In this document: positions 345-25,282 of the stretch, in pieces
How positions within the stretch are numbered: position 1 is the first letter of the stretch
How the letters are laid out: each line of letters opens with the position of its first letter
Assembly: GCA_016125375.1 (NCBI GenBank)
Contig: WGLU01000007.1
Coordinates: 68,499-132,498, forward strand
Origin: Pseudomonadota bacterium
Lineage (GTDB): Bacteria > Pseudomonadota > Alphaproteobacteria > UBA1280 > RI-95
Direction of reading: 5' to 3'
Length of the DNA stretch: 64,000 nt
Notes under the pieces: model-generated
Databases searched by the model: none
What the model saw: only the letters and a program-made list of their open reading frames with translations
What the model was told of the DNA's origin: nothing
Made by a program: the position numbers and the translations under genes

Positions 345-2027
345 ATGCATACCTCCATCAAAGCGCTCCTGCTGGGCGCGGGTGCGGTTGCTGCGCTGGG
401 CCTCGGCCTGGTCGGTGGCAGCGGTTCCGCGAAGGCGGCGAACGAGGTCTACTCGGGCCTCATCTCCGGCGACCTGTCCATCAGCGAGAGCACCGCGCAG
501 CCGGGTCTGTCCGACAAGGCGCGTATCGAGCGCGAGCTGAGCGCCATGGTCTTCATCCAGGGCCCGGGCGTCAACGACGACGGCAGCATCAACCGTGAGG
601 GTTCCGCCCTCGGGTCGGGCTTCGTCATCGACAACAAGCGCTGTATCGTCGTCACCAACAACCACGTGACGGCCGGCCTGGCCTACGTGACCGTGACCTA
701 CCGTGTGGGCATCCGCCCGGACGGCTCGGCCATCCACAACACCACCTATGGCACGCTCATCGGTCACCCGACCGAGGAAAACGACATGGCCGTGGTGAAG
801 CTGGACAACTGCGAAGGCACGTCATGGGCGCCGATCGGCAACTCCAATGCCCTCGAGGCCGGTGACGTGGTCACCGCCATCGGCAACCCGTTCGGGCTGC
901 ACGAGACGGTGACGCACGGCGTGGTTTCGAACCCGCGTCAGCACCGCGAAGGCACCGGCGAGGGTGGCACGGCCTGGCCGTACATCCAGACCGACGCGCC
1001 GATCAACCCGGGTAACTCCGGCGGTCCGCTGTTCAACAGCGACGGCGAGGTCATCGGTATCAACTCCGAGATCTTCAGCAAGAGCGGCGGCAGTGTCGGT
1101 CTGGGTTTTGCCCGTCCGGCGGTTCTGCTCAAGCTCTACCTGAACAACCTCGCGCAGCACGGCCACATGGCCAAGCCGCGTATCGGCATCGAAGTCGCCC
1201 CTCTGACGGCGACCGAGGCGTCGATCATCGGCGTGGACAAGGCCATGAAGGACGCCGGCTTCGGCGACGGCATGGTCTCCAAGGGCTTCACGGGCGTCAG
1301 CGTCCACAACGTCGTCCCGGGTACCCCGGGTGCGGCTGCGGGCCTGAAGAAGGGCGACATCATCCTCGGTCTGGGCGGTCACGCCCAGTACGATATGTAC
1401 TCGCTCATCCGTGCGGTCGACCAGGTCATCCCTGGCGCGCCGACCAAGCTCACCTTCCTGCGTGACGGCCAGGTCCATACGGTCCTCGTCGCCCTGCAGG
1501 ACACCTGGACGGCTCCCGAGCCGCGCCCGGGTGCCGAGGCCTACGAAGGCCTGATGGGCTGGAAGCTGGAGATCGACCCGACCAAGTTCGGTACCGACCT
1601 GCCGGTCATCACGGACATCAAGCGCCTGAGCCCGGCCTTCAAGGTCGGTGGTCTCACCAAGGCCGAGGTCCATGAAGCCGAAGAGAAGCGGATGATGACG
1701 CCGGCCGGTCCGGCCACGCTCATCGTCAGCGGTCATCAGGAAACGGCGATCGACGCCGTTCTGGCCGAAGGTCTGGAGCGTCTGAACCTGGCCGATGTGC
1801 CGGCTGCCGAGCGCATCAGTGCGCTGGAAGCCTACATCGCCAAGGCGCATGCCGAAGGCCGGAAGGTGATGGTCTCCATCCATGTCCGCGTCAAGAGCGA
1901 AGCCAAGCTGGGCGAGAACAGCCTGCCGGCCGAGATCAAGGACAAGATCCTCAAGGGTCTGGCCGCTGGTCAGGATGTCGACAGCCAGTTCTATGTCGAG
2001 ATCAAGCCGAAGGCGTTCGCCAACTAA
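345..2027 (+). CDS. Secreted HtrA/DegP-family (S1C) trypsin-like serine protease with PDZ domain and ~170-aa C-terminal extension (paralog 1)
   Basis: ORF 303..2027 trimmed to the internal Met at 345 (SD gaagagga upstream). The N-terminus MHTSIKALLLGAGAVAALGLGLVGGSGSAKA looks like a signal peptide. Catalytic triad context: His in VVTNNHV, Asp in NDMAVVKLD, Ser in GNSGGPLFN. A PDZ-like segment follows (GDIILGLGG...LTFLRDGQVHTV). GC3 is very high. Confidence 0.8.
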   Translation: MHTSIKALLLGAGAVAALGLGLVGGSGSAKAANEVYSGLISGDLSISESTAQPGLSDKARIERELSAMVFIQGPGVNDDGSINREGSALGSGFVIDNKRCIVVTNNHVTAGLAYVTVTYRVGIRPDGSAIHNTTYGTLIGHPTEENDMAVVKLDNCEGTSWAPIGNSNALEAGDVVTAIGNPFGLHETVTHGVVSNPRQHREGTGEGGTAWPYIQTDAPINPGNSGGPLFNSDGEVIGINSEIFSKSGGSVGLGFARPAVLLKLYLNNLAQHGHMAKPRIGIEVAPLTATEASIIGVDKAMKDAGFGDGMVSKGFTGVSVHNVVPGTPGAAAGLKKGDIILGLGGHAQYDMYSLIRAVDQVIPGAPTKLTFLRDGQVHTVLVALQDTWTAPEPRPGAEAYEGLMGWKLEIDPTKFGTDLPVITDIKRLSPAFKVGGLTKAEVHEAEEKRMMTPAGPATLIVSGHQETAIDAVLAEGLERLNLADVPAAERISALEAYIAKAHAEGRKVMVSIHVRVKSEAKLGENSLPAEIKDKILKGLAAGQDVDSQFYVEIKPKAFAN

Positions 2028-2038
2028 CCAAGCGACAG

Positions 2039-2071
2039 GAAGCCCCCCCTCACCGGGGGGCTTCTTTTTTT
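2039..2071 (+). terminator. Rho-independent terminator (GAAGCCCCCC-loop-GGGGGGCTTC followed by T7)
   Basis: A 10-bp GC stem directly after stop codon 2025-2027, followed by a run of seven T. Confidence 0.8.
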
Positions 2072-2172
2072 GTTTTACAATAAGGGGGCGGTGGGCCTAC
2101 ACTCACAGAAATACCATCCTTTTGCTTTTCCCTTTTTGTATCTTCCCGCTTCTCTCTTCAGGAGAGGTCATC

Positions 2173-3324
2173 ATGATCATGAAAATCCTCCGCGCCCTGT
2201 ACGGGGTGTTCTGCGTCGTCCGCGACGTGTCGTTCGCGCTCGGCCTCATCGTCCTCGTCGCCTTCGGCTACCTGTTCGTCGACGAGCTGGGCAAGCTGCC
2301 CATCGACATGCCGGAAGCCGCCCGTGCCTACCCGGAAACGGCCGCGCCCGTGAAGATTCCGTTCAAGCTCGACCCGGCCGAAAGCACGGCGCTCGCCGGC
2401 CTGACCGATGCCCAGCGCACCGAGCGTATGCTGCGCTCCACCATCATGGTGGTGACCGGCGAACGCGCGCTTGGCTCCGGCGTCATCATCGACAACAAGG
2501 CCTGCTACGCGGTGACCAACGAGCACGTCATCGGCATCCCCGGTGACATCAAGGTCTCGTACATCACCCGCTTCCGTGAAGACGGCAGCGCCATCACCAA
2601 GACCGTCGACGCCGAGATTATGGGCATTCCGAGCAAGGACAACGACCTTGCCCTGCTCAAGCTCTCCGGCTGCGAAGGCACGTTCTGGGCGCCGATCGGC
2701 GACTCCGACGTCCTGCGTCACGGCGATCTGGTGACGGCCATCGGCCATCCGAAGGGCCAGTTCTGGACCCTGACGGAAGGCGTGGTCAGCCAGCCGCGCC
2801 GCAAGATGGAAGGCTACACCGACTCTTCCGGTTGGGAGATGATTCAGGTGGACGCCGCCATCAACAGCGGTAACTCCGGCGGTCCGCTCTTCACGCGTGG
2901 TGGTGCCCTCATCGGCATCAACTCCATGAAGCGCACCGACGGCGAGAACCTCGGCTACGCGCGTCCGGCCAATCTGGTCGAGACGTACCTGGTCTACCTG
3001 TCGCACTACGGTGCCATGCCAAAGATCCTGCTCGGCGTCGAGGTCAGCCAGATGGATGACGAGATGGCCGCCACCAATGGCGTGCCTGCGTCCTACATCA
3101 AGGCCGGCGACTTCGGCCTGCTGATCAAGACCGTCATGCCCGACGGCAAGGCGGCCAGCATTGGCCTGAAGGCCGACGACGTGCTGCTCGCCGTCAACGG
3201 CGACGGCGTGTACGACGTGCACCAGTTCAAGCGTCTGCTGTACCGGCACACGCCCCATGGCGCCATGAAGCTGACCATCATCCGTGACGGCCAGCTCCAG
3301 ACCGTGACCGTGTCCGGCAACTAA
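2173..3324 (+). CDS. Membrane-anchored HtrA/DegP-family (S1C) serine protease with PDZ domain (paralog 2)
   Basis: ORF 1882..3324 trimmed to MIMKIL at 2173 (SD ggagagg upstream). The upstream extension is Arg/Ser-rich and non-genic. The N-terminal TM helix is ALGLIVLVAFGYLFV. Catalytic context: His in AVTNEHV, Asp in DNDLALLKL, Ser in GNSGGPLFT. The PDZ-like C-terminus is clearly paralogous to 345..2027 (shared CEGT.WAPIG, LVTAIG motifs). Confidence 0.8.
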   Translation: MIMKILRALYGVFCVVRDVSFALGLIVLVAFGYLFVDELGKLPIDMPEAARAYPETAAPVKIPFKLDPAESTALAGLTDAQRTERMLRSTIMVVTGERALGSGVIIDNKACYAVTNEHVIGIPGDIKVSYITRFREDGSAITKTVDAEIMGIPSKDNDLALLKLSGCEGTFWAPIGDSDVLRHGDLVTAIGHPKGQFWTLTEGVVSQPRRKMEGYTDSSGWEMIQVDAAINSGNSGGPLFTRGGALIGINSMKRTDGENLGYARPANLVETYLVYLSHYGAMPKILLGVEVSQMDDEMAATNGVPASYIKAGDFGLLIKTVMPDGKAASIGLKADDVLLAVNGDGVYDVHQFKRLLYRHTPHGAMKLTIIRDGQLQTVTVSGN

Positions 3325-12638: not shown

Positions 12639-13448
12639 ATGATTCACAGCGCACGTATTTTGATGGTTGGCCTCGGGAATATGGGGGGTGCGATGGTGGA
12701 GGGTTTTCTGGCCAAAGGTGTCGCCCCTGCAAACATCACAGCGCTGGACAGTGCCCCTGCGGCAAAGGAGAAGGCGGCACAGTGGGGCATTGAGATGATT
12801 CAAAAGCCTGAGGATCTGGCTCATACGCCGCATTTTATCATTCTGGCAGTCAAGCCGCAGGTCATGGATGTGGTTGCTCCGGCTTATAAACATCTGGTCA
12901 GTGAAGGGGTGTGCTTCCTGTCTGTTGCGGCGGGGCAGACAATCGAGAAGCTTAAAGGTTATCTGGCACCGCAAGCCCGCATCATCCGTGCAATGCCCAA
13001 TACACCGGCTGCTGTGGGCGCAGGGATGACAGTCCTGTGCGGTACGCCCAATCTGGCCGTGGAGCAGATGGCGGTAGCAGAGGCCCTGATGGCCTGTGTC
13101 GGCGAAGTGGCATGGATTGAAGACGAACACCTGATGAATGCGGTTACGGCAGTATCCGGCTCCGGACCTGCTTACTTTTTCCGGATGATGGAAGCGTTGG
13201 AAGCCGCAGCCCTTGCGCAGGGGTTGCCGGCGGATGTGGCGCGCAAGCTGGCTGTACAGACTGCTTACGGTGCCGGCAAACTGGCCGCGGAGCGTACCGG
13301 TACATCGCCCACTGACCTGCGGGTGGCAGTCACAAGCCCTGGAGGGACGACAGAAGCCGGTCTTAAGGCTCTGGATGCGCACAACTTTACCCAAACAGTC
13401 TCGGCAGCGGTAGAGGCCGCGACCGCACGAGGTAATCAATTAGGGTAA
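12639..13448 (+). CDS. proC: Pyrroline-5-carboxylate reductase
   Basis: Start at MIHSARILMVGLGNMGGAM (NADP-binding GxGxxG) with an SD upstream. ProC C-terminal dimerisation region (SPGGTTEAGL). Confidence 0.85.
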   Translation: MIHSARILMVGLGNMGGAMVEGFLAKGVAPANITALDSAPAAKEKAAQWGIEMIQKPEDLAHTPHFIILAVKPQVMDVVAPAYKHLVSEGVCFLSVAAGQTIEKLKGYLAPQARIIRAMPNTPAAVGAGMTVLCGTPNLAVEQMAVAEALMACVGEVAWIEDEHLMNAVTAVSGSGPAYFFRMMEALEAAALAQGLPADVARKLAVQTAYGAGKLAAERTGTSPTDLRVAVTSPGGTTEAGLKALDAHNFTQTVSAAVEAATARGNQLG

Positions 13449-13560
13449 TACATCTATCGCGTGTATATCTTTGTACGATGAATGCCACACTCCAAAGTGG
13501 TATTTCTTGTCTTTTTTACGTACCAAATATGGCTTAAATATTATGTTTTTCGTGTTTCAT

Positions 13561-13574
13561 CCTGATTAATCAGG
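13561..13574. promoter_or_regulatory. Perfect 14-bp palindrome CCTGATTAATCAGG in the AT-rich leader of the GntR-family regulator gene (candidate operator)
   Basis: Exact inverted repeat ~105 nt upstream of the regulator's ATG, within a 229-bp AT-rich spacer. Confidence 0.3.
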
Positions 13575-13677
13575 TATTTTTTATGTGCGACAGTATGGAC
13601 ATGTACAACTAATAAGGGTGCTTTATGATTATTGGTTACATGAAATACAACCTAGAAATGTTTTTGAGGGACTAAAC

Positions 13678-14376
13678 ATGAGTGTTGTTACACTGCCTAT
13701 CGTGGAAAAGCACGACAAAATACGTCGATCGGCTGCCATTGCTACCCAATTGAAAGAGATGATTCTGGACGGTGTCCTTAAAGCAGGCGACCGTTTGCCG
13801 ACCGAGGAACAGTTGTGCCGCCACTTCGGCGTGTCACGCACCACACTGCGGGAATCTGTACAAATGCTGCGTGTTTCAGGCCTGCTGGAGGTTACTCCGG
13901 GCCGTGGCAGCTTTGTAAGGGTGCCTGACCTGCGCAAGATTATGGACGACGTTGCCGTATTCGGCTGCGCCGGTGGTATGGATGATGCCGAAGTCCAGAA
14001 CCTGATTGCCCTGCTGCAACACGAAATGGTGCGCCGTGCCTGCCGCGCACCTGCCGTTCGCAAAAGCAGCCTGACGGATTACCCGATCAGCCGATTGGCA
14101 CCGGTATCCGAGAACGAACGCGCCGAGCGTGCCTGGCTGCTGGCGATTGCTTCGGTCTCCGGTTACAAGGTTGGCCGTATGCTGCTGGAAGTGCTGTTGA
14201 CCATGACCCGCCGTCAGCGCCAACTGCGCCTGGCAAAAGCGGGTGAGGTACAGCGCCTGATGGAAGTGCAACTGCGCCTGAACGCCGCAATTATTGACGG
14301 TAACGCCGATATGGCCGGGCGGGTGATGGAAGCGTATCTGCAAAGCTGCAAGGATGGTACAACACTGAGTGCCTAG
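13678..14376 (+). CDS. GntR-family transcriptional regulator (FadR/FCD subfamily)
   Basis: N-terminal winged HTH: LPTEEQLCRHFGVSRTTLRESVQMLRVSGLLEVTPGRGSFV. All-helical C-terminal FCD-like domain. The ORF track start at 13585 is a GTG; the ATG at 13678 was chosen. Confidence 0.8.
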   Translation: MSVVTLPIVEKHDKIRRSAAIATQLKEMILDGVLKAGDRLPTEEQLCRHFGVSRTTLRESVQMLRVSGLLEVTPGRGSFVRVPDLRKIMDDVAVFGCAGGMDDAEVQNLIALLQHEMVRRACRAPAVRKSSLTDYPISRLAPVSENERAERAWLLAIASVSGYKVGRMLLEVLLTMTRRQRQLRLAKAGEVQRLMEVQLRLNAAIIDGNADMAGRVMEAYLQSCKDGTTLSA

Positions 14377-14921
14377 GCCTGTGCTGCCTCGTCCTTGAGG
14401 TACTGTTTAAGGACCCGGTAGGCGTCGTTGATCCTTTTGATCTTGTCGGCGCTTTCCGGGTCTTTATTGCGGTCGGGGTGATGCTCTTTGGCCAATTTAT
14501 GATAAACCTTGCGCACCTTGGCACTGTTCAGTGGCGGTGTAACACCCAGTTCTGCACAGGCGTCGCGCACATCGGGTGGCAGGTTGCTCGTTTCCGGCTT
14601 GGCTTCGGCAGGTTTGTGGTGCAGCTCCTCAAAAAAGCCGTATGGGTCCTCCGTGGCGCCAAAAGCTGCGGTCGCACCGACAAAAGACTTTGTGCCCAGT
14701 CCCATTTTCCATGTCGGACGGTTCCACGTCGCACCCCCATGCTGCATGGAGAAGATCTCCTGCGAGGAGAAACCGTTCAGCCCGTTCCAACGGGAATTGA
14801 ACTCCTTGATGTGTTTCAAGCAGTAGAATTGACGGTCATAAATATTGCGCGGGTCCCGCGGGGCAGGGTATTCACCTGGCTCCGTACATTCGGGATGTGC
14901 GCAGGGATGCACATCTGTCAT
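14373..14921 (-). CDS. J-domain protein with C-terminal DnaJ domain and N-terminal Cys/His-rich segment
   Basis: C-terminus KVRKVYHKLAKEHHPDRNKD...INDAYRVLK carries the HPD tripeptide of J domains. The N-terminus has CAHPEC...C..H. The start lies 4 nt after the prepilin peptidase stop. Confidence 0.7.
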   Translation of the reverse strand: MTDVHPCAHPECTEPGEYPAPRDPRNIYDRQFYCLKHIKEFNSRWNGLNGFSSQEIFSMQHGGATWNRPTWKMGLGTKSFVGATAAFGATEDPYGFFEELHHKPAEAKPETSNLPPDVRDACAELGVTPPLNSAKVRKVYHKLAKEHHPDRNKDPESADKIKRINDAYRVLKQYLKDEAAQA

Positions 14922-14924
14922 GCC

Positions 14925-15554
14925 CTACCATATAGACTGATAAAGCCGCAGAAACAAGAGTTGAACACCATCGGGGTAGAGTGCCATAAGCCAAATGGCG
15001 AGGCCCAATGCGGGACCGTAGGGGGTGTTGCCATCCTTTTGTGCGAAGGCGGCAAGGCCAAAACCGAAAAAAGCCGCCAGCGTAAGGGCCGGGAAAAAGC
15101 CGCCCAAGCCAGCCCATACGCCAAGTGCAGCCAGCATTTTAATATCCCCACCGCCAATATGCTCGGTGATGGTATCACCTTTGAGCTTAGCCACCACAAA
15201 AGAAACACTGAAACCAAAACACAGGCCAAGTGCGCCACCGGCAAAAGGGTCATACCAGTCGCCGTGGTTGGTGAACGTGAATGGGCTGAGCAGGCCCAGT
15301 AGCAGAATGGGGAAAGTATAAATATCCAGCAGCAGGAAATGGCTCAGGTCAATAGCCATGGTCCGTGCCAGCAGTGCAGCGAGCAGCGTGATATAAACAA
15401 TCGAGACGATGTTGAGTTCAGGAAGCCTGGGTGCGGCCATCGCGAGCAGTACAAGGAACAGTGCAACTGTACAAAGTGCGCGAAAACGCTGCGGCACACG
15501 CCCGTCAAGGGGATGTGCCGCAGCAATATGGCGCGCCTCAAACGACCGGAGCAT
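14925..15554 (-). CDS. Prepilin peptidase (A24 family, short TadV/CpaA-like form without N-terminal zinc-finger or methyltransferase extension)
   Basis: The second catalytic-Asp motif IGGGDIKMLAALGVWAG matches A24 GGGDVKLL. The first Asp lies in AIDLSHFLLLD. Polytopic membrane protein, 209 aa. Confidence 0.75.
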   Translation of the reverse strand: MLRSFEARHIAAAHPLDGRVPQRFRALCTVALFLVLLAMAAPRLPELNIVSIVYITLLAALLARTMAIDLSHFLLLDIYTFPILLLGLLSPFTFTNHGDWYDPFAGGALGLCFGFSVSFVVAKLKGDTITEHIGGGDIKMLAALGVWAGLGGFFPALTLAAFFGFGLAAFAQKDGNTPYGPALGLAIWLMALYPDGVQLLFLRLYQSIW

Positions 15555-15562
15555 GCCCGGGC

Positions 15563-16651
15563 TTAGCCGCAGGTCGCGGGGTTGGTCGGCGTGGTGCAGA
15601 ACTCAATGCTGGTCGTAAACGGCGCCTGACCAACGTTGGTTACGTTCGAGTTGTAGCGCAATCGGCGGTTCCATGGGTCAACTGCGTAGGTACGCGGCAG
15701 ACTCAGCAGCTCCATCAGGGCTTCCATGCTGTTCGTTGCCGATGCGGCGGCACCCACATCGTATGTCGCCTGAACACCCAAGCTGGCTGCTGTACGCAGG
15801 TCCGGCACGTAGTAAACGTCCAGGTTCTGGTTTTCCAGGCTGGAACGCGGGTAGTAGTTGGCGCGGCCTTCCTCGCCGATATCGTAGGTGTTATCGTCGG
15901 CCCGGCTGCTGCTGTTAATGTAGTTCGGGTTGGCCTGGTTGACGTCTTGCACATCCATCCAGTCGCAGCGGTCGTCGTTCGCCGGGTCCTGAGCCGCGTT
16001 GCCCGCCATGAACAGGGCCAGTTTGTTTGAGCAGTAGTTCTGGTTTTCTGTAAACAGGCGTGCCTCATAGGCAGAGAGGGCTTTGGTAATTTCCTCGCCC
16101 TGGCGGCGGAACACTTTTACACGGGACTTCTCGATGTCCAGGGTGGAGAATTTGCGGCCAATATCGTCATTGGCGGGTTGCCAGGCACCGTAGTCGGCAG
16201 CACAGGAACCGTTCGTCAGGAAGTCGCCTGTGCCAGAGTCGTTTGTGCCATCTTTACCGGGTGAATAAATGGCAAAGTACTGAACGGAGGGTACGACAAT
16301 ACCGTCGATGCTGACGTTGGTCTCGGTGCAGGTGTCGTAGACCCAGGCAGAACCCCAGGCATCAGCATTCAGGGTCTGGTTTTCTACCAGACCTGTATCA
16401 AAAACGAGCGTCTGGACGTTTGCCCACGAAGTGGGGACAGTTGTGATGCCTGTGGATATGTAATAGGTCTCGATACCTTTTGTAATCAGCTCTGCGGCAA
16501 CATCGGTGTTTTCCACTTTTGTGCGTTCGATACGCGACATTTGCATGCCGCCGAGCGAAACCGCCAGAATACTGGCGACAACCAGCGCAATACGCGCATC
16601 CATACTGAACATGGCGCCGTGCTGGTTACGAAGAATGTTGGTCGTTCTCAT
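15563..16651 (-). CDS. Large pilin-like protein (362 aa) with prepilin-type leader MRTTNILRNQHG/AMFSMDARIALVVASILAV and N/T/Y/D-rich C-terminal domain ending in a Cys pair
   Basis: The leader and hydrophobic helix parallel the 22935..23546 pilin (shared G-AMFxxDAR[IV]AL). C-terminal ...CTTPTNPATCG is disulfide-loop-like. The start was taken at the Met at 16651 (GGGGG SD 10 nt upstream), not the ORF-track start at 16702. Confidence 0.55.
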   Translation of the reverse strand: MRTTNILRNQHGAMFSMDARIALVVASILAVSLGGMQMSRIERTKVENTDVAAELITKGIETYYISTGITTVPTSWANVQTLVFDTGLVENQTLNADAWGSAWVYDTCTETNVSIDGIVVPSVQYFAIYSPGKDGTNDSGTGDFLTNGSCAADYGAWQPANDDIGRKFSTLDIEKSRVKVFRRQGEEITKALSAYEARLFTENQNYCSNKLALFMAGNAAQDPANDDRCDWMDVQDVNQANPNYINSSSRADDNTYDIGEEGRANYYPRSSLENQNLDVYYVPDLRTAASLGVQATYDVGAAASATNSMEALMELLSLPRTYAVDPWNRRLRYNSNVTNVGQAPFTTSIEFCTTPTNPATCG

Positions 16652-16701
16652 GGTGTTAATACCCCCGTATCTTACCATTTTGTTGTGCGTGCCCCGTGTC
16701 A

Positions 16702-17487
16702 TTACTTCGCACCCGCAGCTGCCGAGGCTTCGCGCATATCAATAATATCTGTATAGGTTTCTGACCACGGTGCCGGTGTTGTAAATGATATTGTGGCTGT
16801 TTGGGATGTTGCGCGGGCATAGGTAAAGTTATTGCCCCAGAAGTCCCGTTGCGTGTACACGTCCCGGATATCCGTATTGAACGTGCCGTTTGTCGGCAGG
16901 TGGTGCGTGCCGGACTCCGCCGTACCATCTACCATGGCGCGGCGCCACCAGTCGTAAACAAAGTCCGTCAGGGCAGCCATGTTACCCTTGGAAATTTCAA
17001 GCTGGCGGGCCCGTATGACCGATGTGTCGATAACAGCGACATCGTCGCGTTTGGTAATATCGCTCGTGAGCATGTTGGCATCTGTAGATGTAGAGGCATC
17101 TGCGCGGATAAATGCATCGTCAGAGTTGGAAATCATGACCCGTTGGCGACCTGTCGCGTTATCCATCGCTGTAGAGTTGATGACGATGGCCTGACCGTTG
17201 CGCGTGTCCAGACTTGCAGAGGTGGAATTGCGGATACGGGTTGCATCAATGCCATTATTGAAGTTGGCTGCTGTTTCCATGAGCAGAGCGTTTTCTACAC
17301 CGTCTTTAAGCTCTTGCAGCTGTTTCTTTTTGGCTTCGGCCTGCTGGGCCTCGATTTTGGCCAGTTCGCGTTCGGCCTGTTTGCGCATCGCAGTGGAGAA
17401 AACAGCCAGACCAAGCACCAAACCGATCATGAACGGGGAAAAGTTACCCCGTTGGCATTTGAGCGATTTGGCAATCCTTGCCAGCAT
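16702..17487 (-). CDS. Pseudopilin/minor-pilin-like protein (261 aa), leader MLARIAKSLKCQRG/NFSPFMIGLVLGLAVFSTAM followed by coiled-coil
   Basis: The leader ends in Q-R-G like the other two pilin-like genes. A 20-residue hydrophobic helix is followed by a Lys/Glu-rich helix, then a Ser/Thr/Asn-rich domain. Confidence 0.5.
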   Translation of the reverse strand: MLARIAKSLKCQRGNFSPFMIGLVLGLAVFSTAMRKQAERELAKIEAQQAEAKKKQLQELKDGVENALLMETAANFNNGIDATRIRNSTSASLDTRNGQAIVINSTAMDNATGRQRVMISNSDDAFIRADASTSTDANMLTSDITKRDDVAVIDTSVIRARQLEISKGNMAALTDFVYDWWRRAMVDGTAESGTHHLPTNGTFNTDIRDVYTQRDFWGNNFTYARATSQTATISFTTPAPWSETYTDIIDMREASAAAGAK

Positions 17488-17496
17488 AGCCGTACG

Positions 17497-18294
17497 TCAT
17501 ACCCCCATACGCAGTTCGTAATCGCGACCTGCAACTGACACCACAACAGCGCGGTGCTTAATTTCCTTTACTGTCACACTAATATTATAGCGGCCGTCAT
17601 TAGTTTTTGACTTACGTAGCTGGTCTTTCTTCTCGCGGTACTCGCGCAGGGCCTCGTCCCGGTATTCCTGATATTGCTGGTAGGCGGTTTCGGATACGCT
17701 GTCCGGTTCCGGCATCTGGGCATAGATGGTTTCTTCGACCTTGTCGGTGCTATCGAGCTTGACGTTTACAGGCAGCAGGAAACGGTCACCCGGAGAGAAC
17801 TTCTTGTTGTTAATCATCACATAAGGCGAGGGGGCTGCGATAACCGATTGCAGGACAATACGGCCAAGGTCTTTGGTAAAGTCATAATCGCTGAAATCGA
17901 ACACCTGACCTTCATGCGCCGTATTGATGATGGTGTGCAGGTAATTACGGAATTCATCCAGGTTCAACTGGTCAGAAGCGGTCAGGTCCGGTAACTGCGG
18001 CAGGTTGATATTAATTTGCTCTGCAGGGGCCTCCTGCTGTTCTTTTTCCGTTGCAAACGGATCAATAAGGCCGCGTTGCAGCAAGGATGTAATGGTTGGC
18101 AGCAGGTCGGCACCCTCTTTCGCACGGCCGCGGCCCGCGCGCTTTTGCACCTGCATTTCCTGAATCAGATTGTCGCGTTTAAAGTCAAATTCGGGCTGAC
18201 CACGGAACGTTATCGGCCACTGCTGCGCCAAAGCAGACGTAGCGGCAAACGCAACCAGAACAAACGCAAAAAGTGGTAGCTTAACTTGGTGCAT
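17497..18294 (-). CDS. Secreted/periplasmic operon protein of unknown family (signal peptide MHQVKLPLFAFVLVAFAATSALAQQ)
   Basis: Cleavable Sec-type signal. The Glu/Gln-rich mature protein sits in the middle of the pilus-like operon. The start was chosen at the Met at 18294. Confidence 0.5.
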   Translation of the reverse strand: MHQVKLPLFAFVLVAFAATSALAQQWPITFRGQPEFDFKRDNLIQEMQVQKRAGRGRAKEGADLLPTITSLLQRGLIDPFATEKEQQEAPAEQININLPQLPDLTASDQLNLDEFRNYLHTIINTAHEGQVFDFSDYDFTKDLGRIVLQSVIAAPSPYVMINNKKFSPGDRFLLPVNVKLDSTDKVEETIYAQMPEPDSVSETAYQQYQEYRDEALREYREKKDQLRKSKTNDGRYNISVTVKEIKHRAVVVSVAGRDYELRMGV

Positions 18295-18796
18295 TGACGG
18301 TCTCCGGGTTGTACACATAAACAAAGCCTTTAATCTGAATCATGCGCTGGTTGGGCTCAGGCTCGGCACCGGAGGGAAGGGACAGGCAGCCGAAGCACGC
18401 ACTGAAAAGCACAAAGCCGTTCATGTTCTCCAGTTTGTTCACCAGGCGCAGGCCGGTCACAAAGTCTGTCAGGCCCGTAATCTCGAAGTTGTGGCGGTAG
18501 AAAAAGCGGTTGTCCTGAGAGTTTGGGTCCGCTTCGCTGGTATATTTGAACTCAACGTTTTTGGGCAGCTCAATTGCACGTTCAATGTTCAGCTTCTGGT
18601 CTTCGCCTTTTTTAAGGGTGACTTCCTTGATGGCTTCAATTTTTTTGGCAAACTTTCCGGCTTCCTGCTTGTCGCGGATTGCCTGAGCCAGCTGATTACG
18701 CTGAACTTTGATGCCGTTAAGATTTTCCATGAACTGGAACCCGCCAACAATAAGGGCAAAGGCGGAGAGAATCAGACCAATCGTGAACTGAATCAT
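18281..18796 (-). CDS. N-terminally membrane-anchored operon protein (GspM/PilO-like topology, 171 aa)
   Basis: A single N-terminal TM helix (IQFTIGLILSAFALIVGGF) is followed by a coiled-coil and a beta-rich C-terminus. The topology resembles assembly-platform components. There is no sequence-family match. Confidence 0.45.
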   Translation of the reverse strand: MIQFTIGLILSAFALIVGGFQFMENLNGIKVQRNQLAQAIRDKQEAGKFAKKIEAIKEVTLKKGEDQKLNIERAIELPKNVEFKYTSEADPNSQDNRFFYRHNFEITGLTDFVTGLRLVNKLENMNGFVLFSACFGCLSLPSGAEPEPNQRMIQIKGFVYVYNPETVNAPS

Positions 18797-19941
18797 TTTT
18801 GTTCTCCTTCCTCTTTAGGCTCTGCCTTGGCGGCCTGGCCGGGTTTCATGGTTTCGTTAATCATGCGCTGTTCCTGGGTATGCTTGCGAATTTGTTCGTC
18901 CAGCGTGCTCAGCACAACCAGCCCTTCCAATGTCAGGTCTTCGCGGTTGACAGGGGGTTTACGGATTTCCGCCATGGTCACACTCTGCTTCAGCAGTTCT
19001 TTCGCTATCGGTTCCTGTTCCAGATAGCTCTTGTAGGCTTTCGGCATAGAGGTAATGGTGACCAGCGCAATATCACTTGGCTGGTTTGGTGTGGGGTTTT
19101 CTACTTTAAAGTCGTGCACTTTAAAGTCAGCATTATGCACGGCCATCGCGATATCTTTCAGCACGGTAGAGTACAGATAGCGGTAGCGCATAAACTGTTC
19201 CTGCTCCTGCACACGGCTGATAATCTGGCGGAAGTTGTCGCCAAAGCCGCTTTCCTGTCGGGCAATGGCGACCTGACGGCGGAGGTTGATGACCTCCTGC
19301 TCCTGATCTGTGGTCAGGTAGTACATACCCCCAGCAATGCCCATGCCGATCAAAAGAACATGGAAACCATACCGCTCCTGAATGGTGGGTTTGTTCAACC
19401 ACATGTTCGTATCGAGGGGGACAGACTCCAGTGGCTCAAAAGTAGCATCCAGTTCGGATGTTTTCTCGTTCTTCCAGTTTGTGTAAACCGTTTTCTTGGT
19501 TGTTTTTGGGTACGCCTTGAAAACCTGCTGCAGGTCTTTAACCCATGTTTCTTCAGAGGTGGGCTGGATATAACTGTCGTTAATGTCCCAGTGGAAGATA
19601 ACGTCGGCAGCAATCATGGCATTCAGAGTGTTCGGCGGTGTTTTGCTGGCGCGACAAAAGTCAAACAACGCAATATTCCGCCCATGGTGCATGAGCAGCA
19701 TCTGGTCTTCTTCATGGTCTGTGGGGCTTAAGGCGGCGGCAGGGTCAACATCCGCACCGTCAATATCGCGCGGTGCAAAAAAGCCGAGCATCAGGTTGCG
19801 GCGGCTTTGATCGTCTGTCAGGTCTTTCCAGTTGTCGGCAAACAGCACCTCACCGTTTTCAGGGTAGTACTCTACGCGGTTCAAGCCCACAAAGCAGCGG
19901 TTCTTGAAGCGGGTAATGTTGACTTTTGGTGCTGTAGCCAT
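18793..19941 (-). CDS. Bitopic operon protein (382 aa) with ~190-aa cytoplasmic domain, one central TM helix and periplasmic domain (GspL/PilM-N-like architecture)
   Basis: The central hydrophobic segment HVLLIGMGIAGGMYYLTT splits two soluble domains. It lies immediately downstream of the GspF-like gene, as GspL does in T2SS operons. Confidence 0.45.
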   Translation of the reverse strand: MATAPKVNITRFKNRCFVGLNRVEYYPENGEVLFADNWKDLTDDQSRRNLMLGFFAPRDIDGADVDPAAALSPTDHEEDQMLLMHHGRNIALFDFCRASKTPPNTLNAMIAADVIFHWDINDSYIQPTSEETWVKDLQQVFKAYPKTTKKTVYTNWKNEKTSELDATFEPLESVPLDTNMWLNKPTIQERYGFHVLLIGMGIAGGMYYLTTDQEQEVINLRRQVAIARQESGFGDNFRQIISRVQEQEQFMRYRYLYSTVLKDIAMAVHNADFKVHDFKVENPTPNQPSDIALVTITSMPKAYKSYLEQEPIAKELLKQSVTMAEIRKPPVNREDLTLEGLVVLSTLDEQIRKHTQEQRMINETMKPGQAAKAEPKEEGEQK

Positions 19942-19950
19942 GGGTTGTCC

Positions 19951-21048
19951 CTAGTTTTGCGCAAACACAATTGAAAGCATTTCCATCAACATGACGGCAC
20001 CGCCGGCAATCCAGAGGAAGGCTGAAGTGACGCCAACGAATCTGCTGTTGGCATCCGTCAGAAGGCGGTCAAGAATGGTGTAGGCGTGGTCCATGCCCTC
20101 CACCATCACGTCGTTGATGCCGTCCGTGTTACCGGCATAGTTCTCGGACACTTTTACAGGTGTCACGGCAATAGGCGGGAAGCCGGCCTTGTCCATTGCA
20201 TCAGACATTTGCCCACCGGCAGTAATCACCTGGTTGAACATGTCAATCCGTCGGCGGAGCACAACGTTGGTGGCTAACGCTTCCATAATCGGAATCATCT
20301 GCTTCGGTTTTACACCGCTTCGGATAAGGTGCGGAAAGTACAGCAACATGTTTGTATAAACTTTGTAGGAGGTGTACTTGCCAAGCAGGGGCACTTTCAG
20401 CAGGTAAAAGTCCAGCCAAAAGCGCCCTTGTGTGGTGCGGATCATGGAGTAGGACACAATAATAAAAATGACAAGGAAAGCGGCAATAAAGTGCCAGTGC
20501 GCAGCTACGCCGTGGGTAAAGTTCATCACGAACTCTGACACCATGTTCGGGTCCTTGCCCTGTGCCTTACGCATCTGCATCAGGTTGGGCAGGGTGTTCA
20601 GACCTGTGTTGAAAATAGACGCAAACGACAGCAGCAGCATGGCAATAGGCGTGAAAAGCTCGGCAAAGCCTGCCCGTTGCGATTCCATTTTCTTATCTTC
20701 CAGCTTACGCAGAACCGAGAAGGCCTCGTACATGTTGTTGGAGGCCTCGCCAGCCATAATCGCGGCACGGTGAATGTCGGTAAACAGGATGTATTCGATC
20801 TCGGCGGCCTTGCTCAGGCTTTTGCCTTGCGCCACCTTCTGGGCGATAGCCAGGAGGCCGGAAGAAATATCGTCTTTGCCTTCGGTTTTGAAGGCTTTTG
20901 CAACGGCACGCAGACCGGACTCCGAGGTCTGGCCCGACCGGAGCATCTGTGCCATAAGGAAGAACAGCCTTTCCCGGTCCGCCATGGAAACATCGCGGAC
21001 TTTGGGCCCAAGGCCGCTACTCCCGGTGAATATTTTCGAGATCTGCAC
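19951..21048 (-). CDS. Type II secretion / type IV pilus inner-membrane platform protein (GspF/PilC family)
   Basis: 365 aa with three TM helices. It has two repeated T2SSF cytoplasmic domains (LRSGQTSESGLRAVAKAF..., LIRSGVKPKQMIPIMEALATNV...). Confidence 0.85.
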   Translation of the reverse strand: MQISKIFTGSSGLGPKVRDVSMADRERLFFLMAQMLRSGQTSESGLRAVAKAFKTEGKDDISSGLLAIAQKVAQGKSLSKAAEIEYILFTDIHRAAIMAGEASNNMYEAFSVLRKLEDKKMESQRAGFAELFTPIAMLLLSFASIFNTGLNTLPNLMQMRKAQGKDPNMVSEFVMNFTHGVAAHWHFIAAFLVIFIIVSYSMIRTTQGRFWLDFYLLKVPLLGKYTSYKVYTNMLLYFPHLIRSGVKPKQMIPIMEALATNVVLRRRIDMFNQVITAGGQMSDAMDKAGFPPIAVTPVKVSENYAGNTDGINDVMVEGMDHAYTILDRLLTDANSRFVGVTSAFLWIAGGAVMLMEMLSIVFAQN

Positions 21049-22732
21049 TGAAGAAACGCTCCAGTTCTTCTACACTTGTGATACCACTTTTGACGTGGCG
21101 CAAACCGTTACCCAGCATATCGACCATACTGCCGCTGTTGAGTGCCTGTTCACGTACCACATCAATCCAGTCCGGGCGCAGTCGGTTGCCCGACCAAACG
21201 TTCCGGGTTACTTCCTTCCGCCACAGCTCCAGCACTTCCTCCAGCGCGATACGTCCAATGTATCCGCGGTAGTGGCAGTGCTCGCAGCCGTTGTGGTTCT
21301 GTTTGTAAATGACGTCGCCTTCGGCGAACTTGACGATTTTGGGGCGTACTGCCTTCATGCCTTCGGCGAACTGTCCGTGCAGTTCAATCGGCACCTTGCA
21401 TTTGGGGCACAGGCGACGGACCAGACGCTGCGCGACAATACCACGCACGTTGGAGAAGATCTGTTCTGCGGGCACGCCCCGCTGCAGCAGACGGTCAAGA
21501 CACATGAACGTATCGTTGGCGTGCAGGGTTGTAATAACAAGGTGACCAAGGTTACCGGCGTCGATACAACGGCGGGTATCCTCGGGGCTACGCACCTCAC
21601 CGATGTACAGCACATCGGGGTCCAGACCCAGTGCGGCATACATGAAGGATTCAAGGTTCAGACCTGCACTCAGGTCCTCTTCGGTCTGGATAACGTTATC
21701 CATCCGTTCCTCGATCTGTTTCTCGTAAGAAATCACGTTCTGGCCGGGACGCTGACCGCGACGGATGGTCATACGGGCGGCGGTTGATTTACCCGCACCG
21801 GTCGGGCCGCAGAAGATGATACACCCTTCCTCGAACTTCATCAGCTGGTCGAGCTTTTTAAAGGTTTGCTCGCTGTAGCCGAAATCCTCCAGCTTGCCTT
21901 CAAACGGGCGCATGTAACGCATGGCCAGTTTGGCGGTTCCTTCCAGAGAGATAGGCTGCGTCGTGTAACGAATGTCCACACGTTCACGGCTTGAAATCTC
22001 GAACGTCATACGGCCGTAGAGAGGCTTTTTATAGTTCTCTGCACGTACACCGGCAATGTGGCGCAGACGGCCGAGGACGCGTTCGTACACCTCGATCGGC
22101 AGGGCAACCAGTTCTTCCAGTTCGCCGTCAAATCGGGCCATAACTGTGGGTTTACGGTTCAGGATCTCGATGTGCAAGTCGGATGCGCCGTTTTTGTAGG
22201 CGGTACGGATAATCTCGTCCGTGAGCGAGATGATGGCATCGTCGTTACCGGCGTTAATCTGTGCATAAGCGTTTTCCACAAGGAACTTGAGGGAGTGACC
22301 CTCGCGTTTGCTCATCCGTTCGATGGCGTCTTCGATAGATTTGGCCGGTGCCCAGATGAACTCGTGCTTGTTTTTGCGGTTACGCAGCACGATTTCGCTC
22401 ACCAGGCGTTTGTTCGGCAAGTCGGCAGCAACCCATGTCACCGTGCCGCGGCCCAGCTCGATAGGGCAGGCGGTGTAGTGGAGCATAAACTCCCGGGTGA
22501 TGCCTTCAATCTGGTGGGGGGTGATTTTACCCATCTCGGCAGCGGATTTAACCGGAAAATCATAGGCGATGGCGCGGTAGCGGGACTGTTGTGCCTCGGT
22601 CAACTTACCGGATTTACCAAGTGCTTCGATAAGCGCATCCGGGTTTTTCTGCACAGTAACAGGGAGCGACTGCAAGTCGCTGATGGTGACCACCTGATCA
22701 CTAATCATCAGGTCAACAATATCCATCCCCAT
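21017..22732 (-). CDS. Type II secretion / type IV pilus assembly ATPase (GspE/PilB family, with tetracysteine zinc motif)
   Basis: N-terminal T2SSE_N-like region, ASDLHIE, Walker A FCGPTGAGKST, Asp box GEVRSPED, His box TTLHAN, and CPKC...CEHC zinc site. It overlaps the GspF start by 32 nt. Confidence 0.9.
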   Translation of the reverse strand: MGMDIVDLMISDQVVTISDLQSLPVTVQKNPDALIEALGKSGKLTEAQQSRYRAIAYDFPVKSAAEMGKITPHQIEGITREFMLHYTACPIELGRGTVTWVAADLPNKRLVSEIVLRNRKNKHEFIWAPAKSIEDAIERMSKREGHSLKFLVENAYAQINAGNDDAIISLTDEIIRTAYKNGASDLHIEILNRKPTVMARFDGELEELVALPIEVYERVLGRLRHIAGVRAENYKKPLYGRMTFEISSRERVDIRYTTQPISLEGTAKLAMRYMRPFEGKLEDFGYSEQTFKKLDQLMKFEEGCIIFCGPTGAGKSTAARMTIRRGQRPGQNVISYEKQIEERMDNVIQTEEDLSAGLNLESFMYAALGLDPDVLYIGEVRSPEDTRRCIDAGNLGHLVITTLHANDTFMCLDRLLQRGVPAEQIFSNVRGIVAQRLVRRLCPKCKVPIELHGQFAEGMKAVRPKIVKFAEGDVIYKQNHNGCEHCHYRGYIGRIALEEVLELWRKEVTRNVWSGNRLRPDWIDVVREQALNSGSMVDMLGNGLRHVKSGITSVEELERFFSADLENIHRE

Positions 22733-22934
22733 GTCCTCCTGCGGCGCCCGTCTTATTACGTTGTTTTGCGCCCCCGATAAACCGCTTTATCAAACGTGCC
22801 TAAAGGTTTGTATTTTTTATCCTAACACAGCTTATCGGCGGGCTGTAACCCTTTTTCAAATCGCAAAACACAAGGCCACTGCCGGCGTACCGGCAGTGGC
22901 CTGGTTTGTAACGTCAGGCTGTTGCCAATACGTC

Positions 22935-23546
22935 TTAGCTACGTGTACGCGACAGCAGGTAAGCAACTGTCTCGTTGTCACCTGGCGAGCAGGTGCTGTC
23001 GTAACGGAAGTTACCGGTGTTACCAGTGCCGCCGGTACCATCGATTTTCTTCTCCAAATCGCCAGCAATCTCGCACGGTACGGACGACAAGGTCAGCCAC
23101 TTGCCGCTGATACCGGCAGAGGTGTTGATGGCGGACGGTGTCCAGTTGGCATCAATACGACCGTCACGCAGGGCGAACACGCCGTAGCCGGCAGTGTGCG
23201 TGTTGGTGGCGATTGTAATGTAGGGCCCGTTCCAGTTCAGGGTGCTGTTTGCGTCAGCATACAGGTTCTGGAAGCCCACACCGGTACCGGTGGTGTTCGG
23301 GGCGGTGGAACTGGTGTCTTGCGGCACGTCCACACCCGTGTCGAACACGAAGTTGATGTAGCCTTTGGAAATGTTGTCAAACTCGGTCAGTACGCCGGTA
23401 ACCCGGGTATCACGAACCGCCGAGAACACAGCCACACCGGCAATCGCCGAGAGGCCTGCGAAAATGGCCAGAGCCACACGGGCGTCCAGACCAAACATCG
23501 CGCCGCGCTGTGAGCGCAGCTCTTGAGATACGTTCTTCATAAACAT
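22935..23546 (-). CDS. Major pilin-like protein (first gene of the operon), leader MFMKNVSQELRSQRG/AMFGLDARVALAIFAGLSAIAGV, Gly/Thr/Asn-rich globular domain with C-terminal Cys pair
   Basis: Class-III-signal-like organisation: a charged leader ending in G, then a ~21-aa hydrophobic helix. Two Cys near the C-terminus (VPCE...DSTCSPG). The AAGGAG SD favours the start at 23546. Confidence 0.6.
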   Translation of the reverse strand: MFMKNVSQELRSQRGAMFGLDARVALAIFAGLSAIAGVAVFSAVRDTRVTGVLTEFDNISKGYINFVFDTGVDVPQDTSSTAPNTTGTGVGFQNLYADANSTLNWNGPYITIATNTHTAGYGVFALRDGRIDANWTPSAINTSAGISGKWLTLSSVPCEIAGDLEKKIDGTGGTGNTGNFRYDSTCSPGDNETVAYLLSRTRS

Positions 23547-23719
23547 GGTCATGCTCCTTACATCGGACCGTTATTCTGGGCCTGTTGAGTCAGGCTTAAT
23601 ATTTTTTTCTAGGTATTCCCCATACCACTACTTTATAGCAAGGGTTGCAAGTCAAGCAGCTGAACGTGGCTGACAGGACAAATATATCCGAACACCTGTT
23701 GCCTTTTTGCAATAATAAC

Positions 23720-23746
23720 ATAAAAAACCCGCCGAAGCGGGTTTTC
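23720..23746 (-). terminator. Rho-independent terminator of the cytochrome c gene (AAAACCCGC-CGAA-GCGGGTTTT + T-run on minus strand)
   Basis: A 9-bp stem 22 nt downstream of the stop at 23768. The A6 run at 23722-23727 supplies the T-tail on the minus strand. Confidence 0.75.
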
Positions 23747-23767
23747 ATTATCTCAAGGCAGGGAGCC

Positions 23768-24313
23768 TTAGTCTTTCAGCGTTTTCAGGTACGCGATGAT
23801 GTGGGCACGCTCTTCCGGCTTGCGGATAGACAGCGACATTTTGGTGCCTGGCATATAGTCTTTCGGGCTGGCCAGGAACTCAAAAATCATCTCGGGCTTC
23901 CAAGTTTCGCCAGCTTCGTGTTTCTTGGCGAAAGATGCTGTGTACGAGAAGTCATCGCGGTGTGCAACCTTGGAACCAACAACACCCCACAGGTTAGGAC
24001 CGGTTTTGTTAGGGCCGCCTTTTTCAAAGGTGTGGCAGGCTTTGCATTTGTTGGCGATTTTGGCGCCAATGGCAGGGTCGCCGGCAACCAGCAGGGCGTC
24101 AACATCAACGGGTTTATCGTCATGCTTTGCGGCAGCGCCTTCGCCGGCTTCGGCAGTTTCAGGTGCAAGTGCGGCCAGCACAGGATTCATTTCGGCCTTA
24201 CCGTGCTCGGGCAGCAGGTGGCCGGTCGTGGCAAAATGGCCGGAGAAATAAACAATTGCAAACAGGTCCGCGGCCAGCACGGTCACAATAAACACACGCA
24301 TGAGGTTTTTCAT
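23768..24313 (-). CDS. Membrane-anchored mono-haem cytochrome c (CycM-like)
   Basis: CKACH haem-binding motif and N-terminal TM anchor (LMRVFIVTVLAADLFAIVYF). Start at MKNLMRV (24313) with a GGGGG SD. Confidence 0.8.
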   Translation of the reverse strand: MKNLMRVFIVTVLAADLFAIVYFSGHFATTGHLLPEHGKAEMNPVLAALAPETAEAGEGAAAKHDDKPVDVDALLVAGDPAIGAKIANKCKACHTFEKGGPNKTGPNLWGVVGSKVAHRDDFSYTASFAKKHEAGETWKPEMIFEFLASPKDYMPGTKMSLSIRKPEERAHIIAYLKTLKD

Positions 24314-24448
24314 CAGGTACCCCCCGGGGCATAATAGATTTATTTTGCTTTTGGTCCGTCTCTTAACACGTGCGTTAAGAGCAACTGCCAAAATATAGGC
24401 GCAAGGTAGATTGTTCGTCAACCGTTTTACCATTAGCATGGTACGGGT

Positions 24449-25282
24449 ATGAAGAACGCGCCAACGCACATCATCATGGGAAGAATTGTCGGCCTCGCTG
24501 CGGGGTTGTTTATGTTCGCCGACCTTGTTCCCGCCGTTTTATGCATTATTGTCGGGCTGGCGTGTGACATTCTGTATGCCAGATATATTTTCCCGCTGCG
24601 TTACCGGGACATCCTTCTGCAGGATTACAGTGTGGCCGTGATCGAGCTGTGCGCAAAAATGTGCAAGTCTGACGGTGTGGTGACAAAGGAAGAAATAGAA
24701 GCCTTCCGGCGCAGGCTGATGATTGATGCGCAGGACATGACCATCGTGTCGGCCATTTTTAACAAAGCCAAAAAGAGTGCCCTGGGTTTTGAGGTGCAGG
24801 CGGCAAAAATCCACAGCATTTTACGGACGAGTCCGCAGCAGTTGCTGGCGATCATCGAAGTGCTGTACGAGATTGCCCTTTCGGACAATTTTGTGGCCCC
24901 GGGTGAGCGTAACTTTATCATCAAAGTGGGGCAGGTGTTTGGCTTGACGCCGCTGCAACTGAACGAGATAGAACGCCGCCTTGCTGTTGGCGCCCGCCAG
25001 ACCTCGGAAGGGGCGCGCAATTATGAGCAGTCGTTCGAGCAGGAAGAGGGGAACAACCCGTACCAGAAGTCGGCCATCAGCGGTAAGGACCCCCTCAAGA
25101 TTCTGGGCGTGAAAGACGGTGCCAGCAAGGAAGAGGTAAAGCGTGCGTACCGTAAGCTGGTCGCCAAATACCACCCGGATAAGGTCCGCGGCGATGGTGC
25201 CAGCCAGAAAGAGATCGACCGCGCGGAAGAGAAAATGACCGAGCTGAATGCCGCCTATGCGGCGTTAATGAAGCGCCTGTAG
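24449..25282 (+). CDS. djlA: Co-chaperone DjlA-like protein (N-terminal TM, TerB-like middle domain, C-terminal J domain)
   Basis: The TM helix at the N-terminus and the C-terminal ILGVKDGASKEEVKRAYRKLVAKYHPDK... (HPD) match the DjlA architecture. Confidence 0.7.
   Translation: MKNAPTHIIMGRIVGLAAGLFMFADLVPAVLCIIVGLACDILYARYIFPLRYRDILLQDYSVAVIELCAKMCKSDGVVTKEEIEAFRRRLMIDAQDMTIVSAIFNKAKKSALGFEVQAAKIHSILRTSPQQLLAIIEVLYEIALSDNFVAPGERNFIIKVGQVFGLTPLQLNEIERRLAVGARQTSEGARNYEQSFEQEEGNNPYQKSAISGKDPLKILGVKDGASKEEVKRAYRKLVAKYHPDKVRGDGASQKEIDRAEEKMTELNAAYAALMKRL

Follow-up and report, generated by a model that had tools for sequence, protein, structure and literature searches.

In type IVa pilus (T4aP) operons pilP comes after pilO, and Glu5 is nearly universal in pilins. 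GspC, GspL and GspM, components of T2SS (the type II secretion system), encircle GspF, and the cytoplasmic domain of GspL binds the N1E domain of GspE (PMC8134430). A study of OutB reports that the HR domains of GspB and GspC share a common fold with PilP and that each binds the N0 domain of its cognate secretin (PMC9239104). Here we compare with these systems three consecutive genes, which we call X1, X2 and X3, in a 64,000-nucleotide stretch of contig WGLU01000007.1 from an alphaproteobacterial genome (the whole stretch is referred to below as the window). With a probability of about 70%, the three products belong to a type IV filament machine that has diverged strongly, and form its assembly-platform (alignment) subcomplex at the inner membrane and in the periplasm.

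The initial annotation had placed proteins of 382, 171 and 265 amino acids (aa), with mutually overlapping genes, between a GspF-like gene and pilin-like genes. The open reading frames (ORFs) were found exactly there, with overlaps of 4 nucleotides (nt) between X1 and X2 and of 14 nt between X2 and X3:

18793..19941, minus strand: X1, GspL-like bitopic platform protein, 382 aa (ORF with an ATG start)
18281..18796, minus strand: X2, GspM/PilO-like protein, 171 aa (ORF with an ATG start)
17497..18294, minus strand: X3, Sec-exported periplasmic protein, 265 aa (ORF with an ATG start)

Genes for a T2SSE-type ATPase and a T2SSF-type protein lie upstream of the three, and two pilin-like genes and an A24 peptidase gene lie downstream. 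An independent gene call in the Logan assembly of the same organism gave the same lengths (382, 171 and 265 aa), and the 171-aa (P0037) and 265-aa (P0041) products are also in the NCBI record. The longest possible ORF for X3 would begin at a TTG at 18324 and encode 275 aa, versus 265 aa from the ATG. When one genome per species was scanned (185,579 species), 30 X1-related loci were recovered (L001 to L030). X1 occurs in 30/30, and X2 and X3 orthologues occur in 28/28 loci with a long enough contig, always in the same order. X1, X2 and X3 are real genes. As the initial annotation had stated, none can be assigned to a family, no Pfam or NCBIfam model reaching its threshold for any of the three. 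The results described below support the view that X1, X2 and X3 fit known components by architecture and fold and never by sequence-family membership.

X1 and X2 as candidate membrane components

The AlphaFold2 model of X1, built from 33 sequences, was confident (mean pLDDT of 85). An alpha/beta cytoplasmic domain at about residues 10 to 185 is followed by a long helix (residues 192 to 231) and two more helices, and the C-terminal half holds a periplasmic alpha-beta-beta-alpha-beta-beta (ferredoxin-like) domain at about residues 254 to 343 and then a variable tail. The sole hydrophobic segment, at about residues 192 to 212, lies inside the long helix. It is weak in the window copy (Kyte-Doolittle value of 1.29), and of 32 relatives, all except one have a membrane segment at the corresponding position of the alignment (Kyte-Doolittle values of 1.4 to 2.6). 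X1 has no signal peptide, and its topology is bitopic, as is that of GspL. In a Foldseek search of 350,542 PDB chains, ranks 1 to 3 were cytoplasmic domains of EpsL/GspL, namely, 1w97, 1yf5 and 4pht_Y (probabilities of 0.97, 0.94 and 0.84, respectively), the last of these being a GspL chain crystallized with GspE. Lower matches included the PulL cytoplasmic domain (5tkw), PilO, and the actin-like protein PilO2Bp of type IVb (4bz0). From these matches, allotted by us to particular domains of X1, we infer a truncated actin-like cytoplasmic domain resembling that of EpsL and a periplasmic ferredoxin-like domain made of two alpha-beta-beta units.

These results bear out, at the level of fold, the GspL/PilM-PilN-like architecture proposed for X1 in the initial annotation. 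X1 resembles GspL (EpsL/PulL/XcpY) in its bitopic plan, with a truncated actin-like domain, one membrane helix and a periplasmic alpha-beta-beta-alpha-beta-beta domain. The genetic setting is similar as well: a GspE-type ATPase and a GspF-type protein are encoded in the same operon as X1, and the gene right behind X1 is GspM-like. X1 differs from GspL in the size of its cytoplasmic domain, which spans about 185 residues versus 226 to 238 in solved GspL cytoplasmic-domain chains, and in having no detectable sequence similarity to GspL models or to E. coli GspL. The bitopic plan is also shared with type IVb actin-like proteins such as PilO2Bp, which are analogous to GspL.

A protein of this plan could also be read not as a GspL analogue but as PilM and PilN of a type IVa or MSH-type pilus fused into one. 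We consider this highly unlikely. T4aP encode PilM and PilN separately, whereas X1 is a single fusion whose actin-like domain is of half size, and about 185 residues are too few for the full two-lobed PilM actin fold. No PilM or PilN family was present among the Pfam and NCBIfam matches of any X1 orthologue. Foldseek placed cytoplasmic GspL at ranks 1 to 3, and PilM was not among the matches listed.

A subgroup of X1 orthologues is about 60 to 145 residues longer than the rest, at about 440 to 526 aa (P0029 to P0035; loci L012, L015, L017 to L022, L029 and L030). In these proteins the membrane segment has moved to about residues 283 to 296, so the extra residues precede it and belong to the cytoplasmic part.

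X2 is predicted to consist of an N-terminal helix (residues 2 to 54) and an alpha-beta-beta-alpha-beta-beta domain (residues 67 to 162). The helix contains a hydrophobic segment at residues 1 to 24, the probable membrane anchor, and pLDDT is about 60 to 88 in the globular part (residues 61 to 165). As modeled, X2 would thus have the GspM/PilO layout of N-terminal anchor, helical stalk and periplasmic domain. The initial annotation's comparison of X2 with GspM/PilO therefore stands at the level of architecture, on a shallow model of 4 sequences. Fold matches included further PilO entries (scores of 6.1 and 5.7), the PilO-like protein Amuc_1100 (6.3), PilN (5.0), GspL periplasmic domains (4.6 to 4.9) and GspM (4.1 to 4.3). 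The fold match alone is not specific, so the assignment rests on fold together with topology and position after the GspL-like gene.

X2 differs from PilO and GspM in nearly lacking a cytoplasmic N terminus, as it starts with MIxFTxGL straight in the hydrophobic segment. It also has no hidden Markov model (HMM) match, the confidence of its model is moderate and its fold match is nonspecific. A further difference is a cysteine pair, C134-x-x-C137, which is invariant in X2 orthologues and would fit a periplasmic location. The extreme N terminus, M-(I/L/M/V)-x-F-x-x-G, is likewise invariant among the orthologues, none of which has a cytoplasmic extension. Weak NCBIfam matches of X2 to the pseudopilin XpsH (4 members) and to BasF (3 members) were set aside, the hydrophobic N terminus being their simplest explanation.

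X3 as a candidate periplasmic connector

X3 begins with a Sec-type signal peptide at residues 1 to 24, which ends in SALA and is followed by QQWP. All orthologues begin with a signal peptide ending in AxA. Neither X3 nor its orthologues have a lipobox (no Cys at +1) or a second hydrophobic segment, and with a cleavable signal peptide, mature X3 is thus expected to be a soluble periplasmic protein. The initial annotation had described X3 as Sec secreted and rich in Glu and Gln. Its secretion agrees with these features, and the compositional claim is overstated, as Glu plus Gln make up 14.7% of X3 versus 13.9% of X1 and 14.0% of X2.

The signal peptide is followed by a near-invariant motif, WPxTFxGQP(D/E)FxF, and then by a hypervariable middle region with inserts of about 100 residues in some lineages. 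In orthologues of about 380 aa (L002, L004, L005, L009, L010 and L024), an extra block of about 100 residues follows the N-terminal motif and precedes the HR-like domain. The C-terminal part consists of two conserved blocks, at about residues 139 to 186 and 237 to 265, around a poorly conserved insert of about 50 residues. Pfam model T2SSB (the GspB HR domain, PF16537) gave subthreshold matches to 21/33 full-length X3 orthologues (best E value, 7.6e-6), and when the insert was spliced out, it matched 20/23 cores (best E value, 1.1e-6). The spliced profile had the HR domain of OutB/GspB (4wfw) as its best match among 177,635 PDB sequences, in two collinear pieces, one per conserved block. The unspliced alignment profile matched none of the PDB sequences. 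Among the X3 matches listed there was no GspC or PilP model and no PDZ or coiled-coil domain of the type that GspC has.

These data suggest that the C-terminal domain of X3 is probably of the HR type seen in GspC, GspB and PilP, and the PilP or GspC analogue proposed in the initial annotation thus finds a subthreshold signal in its favor. Like the HR connectors GspB/OutB, GspC and PilP, X3 probably has a C-terminal beta domain, here with recurrent T2SSB matches, and its gene resembles pilP in lying directly after the L-like and M-like genes. It differs from those connectors in having its HR-like domain split by the insert of about 50 residues and in its family-specific motif WPxTFxGQPDFxF. X3 has this putative HR-type domain despite the absence of a linked secretin, the known HR partner.

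Another reading of X2 and X3 is that one or both have no relationship to GspM/PilO and GspC/PilP, which they would resemble only by virtue of common small folds, and are instead lineage-specific accessory proteins; a secreted substrate, a pilotin-like factor and a periplasmic chaperone are examples. Phage tail terminators score equally with PilO as matches of X2, and ferredoxin-like folds are very common. X3, for its part, is soluble and not anchored, its middle region is hypervariable, and its HR matches lie at or below the threshold. We nevertheless judge this explanation improbable. X2 has the PilO/GspM layout and is always encoded directly after the GspL-like gene, with a 4-nt overlap in the window, while the T2SSB signal of X3 recurs in 20 to 21 independent orthologues with both halves collinear. 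The genes for X2 and X3 are also found in every one of the 28 loci that reach far enough.

Several results weigh against assigning X1, X2 and X3 to an assembly platform. For X1, the Foldseek E values are 6e-3 or worse and target-normalized TM-scores are 0.33 to 0.36. Neither the window protein nor any of the 33 members of its family had a meaningful Pfam or NCBIfam match, with no GspL model at an E value of ≤0.1. A PDB profile search with the X1 alignment returned neither GspL nor any other match, and hhalign gave a probability of 0.2% for X1 against E. coli GspL. The X2 model is weak, being based on 4 close sequences, with a mean pLDDT of 65.8 and values below 50 in the long helix. No T2SSM, PilO or PilN model was among the Pfam and NCBIfam matches (E value of ≤0.1) of the 32 X2 members, hhalign gave 0.2% for X2 against E. 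coli GspM, and a PDB profile search found no match. Nor did hhalign detect paralogy between X2 and X1. Across all X1, X2 and X3 alignments compared with E. coli GspL, GspM, GspB and GspC, and for X2 against X1, hhalign probabilities were at most 1.6%. The X3 core of the window scores 26.0 bits versus a Pfam cutoff of 28.4, the T2SSB cutoff being reached at best marginally, and the E value of the PDB match to 4wfw is only 0.047. X3 also differs from GspC and GspB in having no membrane anchor and from PilP in having no lipid anchor. Finally, the 64-kb window yielded no secretin, nor did any of the 30 loci up to 10 kb from the X1 gene.

If X1, X2 and X3 do form an assembly platform, the known roles of GspL, GspM and GspC suggest how they might interact; the folds and topologies come from the present analysis. 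As a GspL counterpart, X1 would use its actin-like domain to keep the ATPase hexamer at the membrane, adjacent to the GspF-like protein, and its membrane helix and stalk would cross the membrane. Its periplasmic ferredoxin-like domain would pair with the equivalent domain of N-terminally anchored X2, the GspM/PilO counterpart. X3, exported by Sec and then soluble in the periplasm, may dock on the X1-X2 pair through its N-terminal WPxTFxGQPDFxF motif. Its HR-type domain would then extend to a putative conduit in the outer membrane, just as GspC, GspB and PilP use their HR domains to reach the N0 domain of a secretin. The overlapping stop and start codons of the three genes suggest translational coupling, which would help to keep subunit stoichiometry. 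The machine so envisaged would be completed by the other products of the operon, a PilB/GspE-type ATPase, a GspF-type protein, three kinds of pilin-like proteins and a short prepilin peptidase.

The probable filament machine encoded with X1 to X3

The remaining features of the locus are as follows:

22935..23552, minus strand: 205-aa pilin-like protein, probable major subunit (ORF with a conserved leader; no Pfam match)
22873..22902, minus strand: terminator-like hairpin behind the 205-aa pilin gene and ahead of the ATPase gene (consensus scan only)
21017..22732, minus strand: PilB/GspE-type assembly ATPase, 571 aa (Pfam T2SSE, 8.5e-67; MshEN, 1.2e-5)
19951..21048, minus strand: GspF/PilC-like polytopic platform protein, 365 aa (Pfam T2SSF, 2.7e-14)
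16702..17487, minus strand: 261-aa pilin-like protein (QRG leader; no meaningful Pfam match)
15563..16702, minus strand: 379-aa large pilin-like protein (leader ...QHG-AMFSMDARIAL; no Pfam match)
14925..15554, minus strand: short A24 prepilin peptidase, 209 aa (Pfam Peptidase_A24, 1.2e-9)
14373..14921, minus strand: DnaJ-domain protein, 182 aa (Pfam DnaJ, 3.1e-13)

The ATPase is about equally distant from PilB and GspE by NCBIfam score (232.8 and 219.6 bits, respectively, versus cutoffs above 600). Its PDB matches were M. xanthus PilB (167.5 bits over residues 6 to 557) and EpsE (158.9 bits). It is collinear with PilB over its full length, whereas matches to GspE begin only at about residues 133 to 162. 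No second T2SSE-type ATPase was found in the window. The GspF-like protein is very divergent. Its best NCBIfam match is GspF, at 82.7 bits versus a cutoff of 424, and its PDB match to PilC scores 33 bits. The peptidase is short, and Peptidase_A24 is its sole Pfam family up to an E value of 1.

None of the pilin-like proteins matched a Pfam pilin or pseudopilin model. The 205-aa protein has the leader ...QRG-AMFGLDARVAL followed by a hydrophobic helix, and the 205-aa and 379-aa types share with their orthologues the leader and N terminus Q-(R/K)-G-A-M-F-G/S-(M/L)-D-A-R-(I/V)-A-L. The Asp in this sequence occupies the Glu5 position if cleavage occurs after Gly-Ala and position +6 if cleavage occurs after Gly; an Arg stands two residues later. 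In the 261-aa protein the leader reads ...QRG-NFSPFMIG, which in the family takes the form (A/G/N)FSPFM(F/I)G, and no acidic residue occurs in the 10 positions after Gly. A hydrophobic segment and then a charged helical stretch follow the leader. This protein is possibly a minor or tip pilin with no Glu5 equivalent.

The hairpin that follows the 205-aa pilin gene (22902 to 22873) has 13 pairs, 10 of them G-C, and a T-rich tail, as found by a consensus scan only. With this terminator-like element behind it, the pilin gene looks like a separate unit, and the arrangement suggests that this unit comprises the one gene, is expressed at a high level and allows read-through into the operon. No riboswitch or other RNA was found in an Rfam scan of positions 13000 to 25000, and promoter-like sites were not enriched relative to shuffled sequence.

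The operon as a whole departs from the definitions of both T2SS and T4aP. A canonical T2SS (GspC to GspO) differs in having five GspG-to-GspK pseudopilins with Glu5, versus three pilin types here in which Glu5 is replaced by Asp or has no acidic counterpart, and the operon is without a linked secretin. With respect to T4aP, in addition to the fused X1, X3 is not a lipoprotein as PilP is, no PilQ-type secretin is linked and the window encodes no second T2SSE-type ATPase as a counterpart of PilT.

The most serious competing proposal takes X1 to X3 as the platform of a T2SS proper, in which a periplasmic pseudopilus would push folded proteins through a secretin encoded elsewhere. GspL is the closest Foldseek match of the X1 cytoplasmic domain, and a single fused bitopic polypeptide is what the GspL type of T2SS has. 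The order of an L-like gene and then an M-like gene is that of T2SS, as in E. coli gspL-gspM, the sole family signal of X3 is to the T2SS protein GspB, and GspF is the best NCBIfam match of the polytopic platform protein. We find the proposal rather doubtful all the same. No gspD is present in the window or the 30 loci. A tblastn search of these sequences with E. coli GspD gave nothing below an E value of 0.65, a Pfam search of 20 of the larger ORFs in the window identified no Secretin domain, and clustering of all ORFs of the 30 loci showed that the only families conserved around X1 are those of the genes listed above. There are also three pilin types and not five, they are large (205 to 379 aa), have no match to a pseudopilin model and all lack Glu5. 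The ATPase is matched over its full length by PilB and by GspE only from about residues 133 to 162, and one pilin gene looks like a separate, terminated unit, as for major pilins.

For a divergent type IV filament machine, which we prefer, a surface pilus is a somewhat likelier product than a dedicated secretion pseudopilus. We lean this way because the 205-aa pilin gene appears to be terminated on its own, the pilins are of large size, PilB aligns collinearly with the entire ATPase and the three pilin types do not correspond to the five of GspG to GspK.

Some neighboring genes were also noted. The 182-aa protein has its DnaJ domain at the C terminus and starts 3 nt past the peptidase gene, and most loci reaching that far have a DnaJ-domain gene right after the pilin and peptidase genes. 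A 277-aa protein encoded at 24449 to 25282 on the plus strand, with TerB and C-terminal DnaJ domains, lies no more than 10 kb from the operon and brings the J-domain proteins there to two. Farther away, at 303 to 3324 on the plus strand, two genes for serine proteases of the HtrA/DegP type (trypsin-like domain plus PDZ) lie side by side and overlap at 1882 to 2027 in longest-ORF calls.

Distribution and significance

A word-index search of 5.8 billion proteins identified 36 X1 relatives, none of which has a name or a Pfam domain. An exhaustive hmmsearch of 1.84 billion representative proteins with the X1 profile gave 27 matches, every one of them a member of the X1 family or a fragment of one, and offered no bridge from X1 to annotated GspL or PilN relatives. 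With only these same-family matches in so large a set, X1 represents an isolated, rare family. X1 identity in the related loci falls to 33%, and X2 and X3 evolve faster yet carry invariant residues.

The gene order is ATPase, GspF-like protein, X1, X2, X3, 261-aa-type pilin and 379-aa-type pilin in every locus that reaches far enough, and the peptidase and DnaJ-domain genes usually come next. The 205-aa pilin gene was found upstream of the ATPase gene in 10/30 loci, the 261-aa type in 26, the 379-aa type in 25 (duplicated in 2 of these) and the peptidase in 18. The initial annotation had named two findings that would speak against it, namely, matches of the three proteins to unrelated families such as transporters or enzymes and a lack of conservation in syntenic loci of relatives. 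No such matches were found, and the ORFs are conserved in related loci.

All 30 loci come from metagenome-assembled genomes (MAGs) that are labeled Alphaproteobacteria or plainly misnamed. Labels inconsistent with the rest include Pseudomonas fluorescens, Pseudomonadaceae, Pseudomonadales, Blastochloris viridis and Magnetococcales (L005, L009, L012, L014, L017, L020, L024, L027 and L029). The operon and its flanks are clearly orthologous despite these names, so several of the MAGs are probably mislabeled. For a Micavibrio genome, pil genes in scattered positions and a T2SS annotated only in part are described (PMC3189940). A Micavibrio-like predator lineage was considered as a source of the operon and dropped, as none of the 30 MAG loci is labeled Micavibrio. 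No description of the operon was found in the literature searched.

The initial annotation saw in the three proteins the most likely source of novelty in the machine. They are indeed orphans, and they share that status with the pilins, which also have no family match. What is new here is a set of probable platform proteins beyond recognition by sequence, with a shorter actin-like domain in X1, a CxxC pair in X2 and an unanchored X3 with a split HR-like domain. More tentatively, the operon may represent an unclassified branch of type IV filaments confined to an uncultured alphaproteobacterial lineage. Such a branch would combine platform proteins past sequence recognition, a soluble connector (X3) with a split HR domain, pilins with Asp for Glu5 that are cut by a short peptidase, and a conduit that is unlinked or no classical secretin at all.

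The three proteins appear to act like known components and so extend a known kind of machine, adding no new mechanism. Their genes are labeled hypothetical in all records examined, and the analysis supplies working roles for them, which can serve in annotation and in mapping the diversity of type IV filaments. With only the ATPase, the platform protein and the peptidase detectable by sequence, a complete-looking type IV filament operon can escape recognition. The operon would be of greater interest if the genomes prove to be secretin-less. If it is a distinct branch, it would offer a natural experiment on which features of these machines are dispensable, among them the membrane anchor of the connector, Glu5 of the pilins and an operon-linked secretin.

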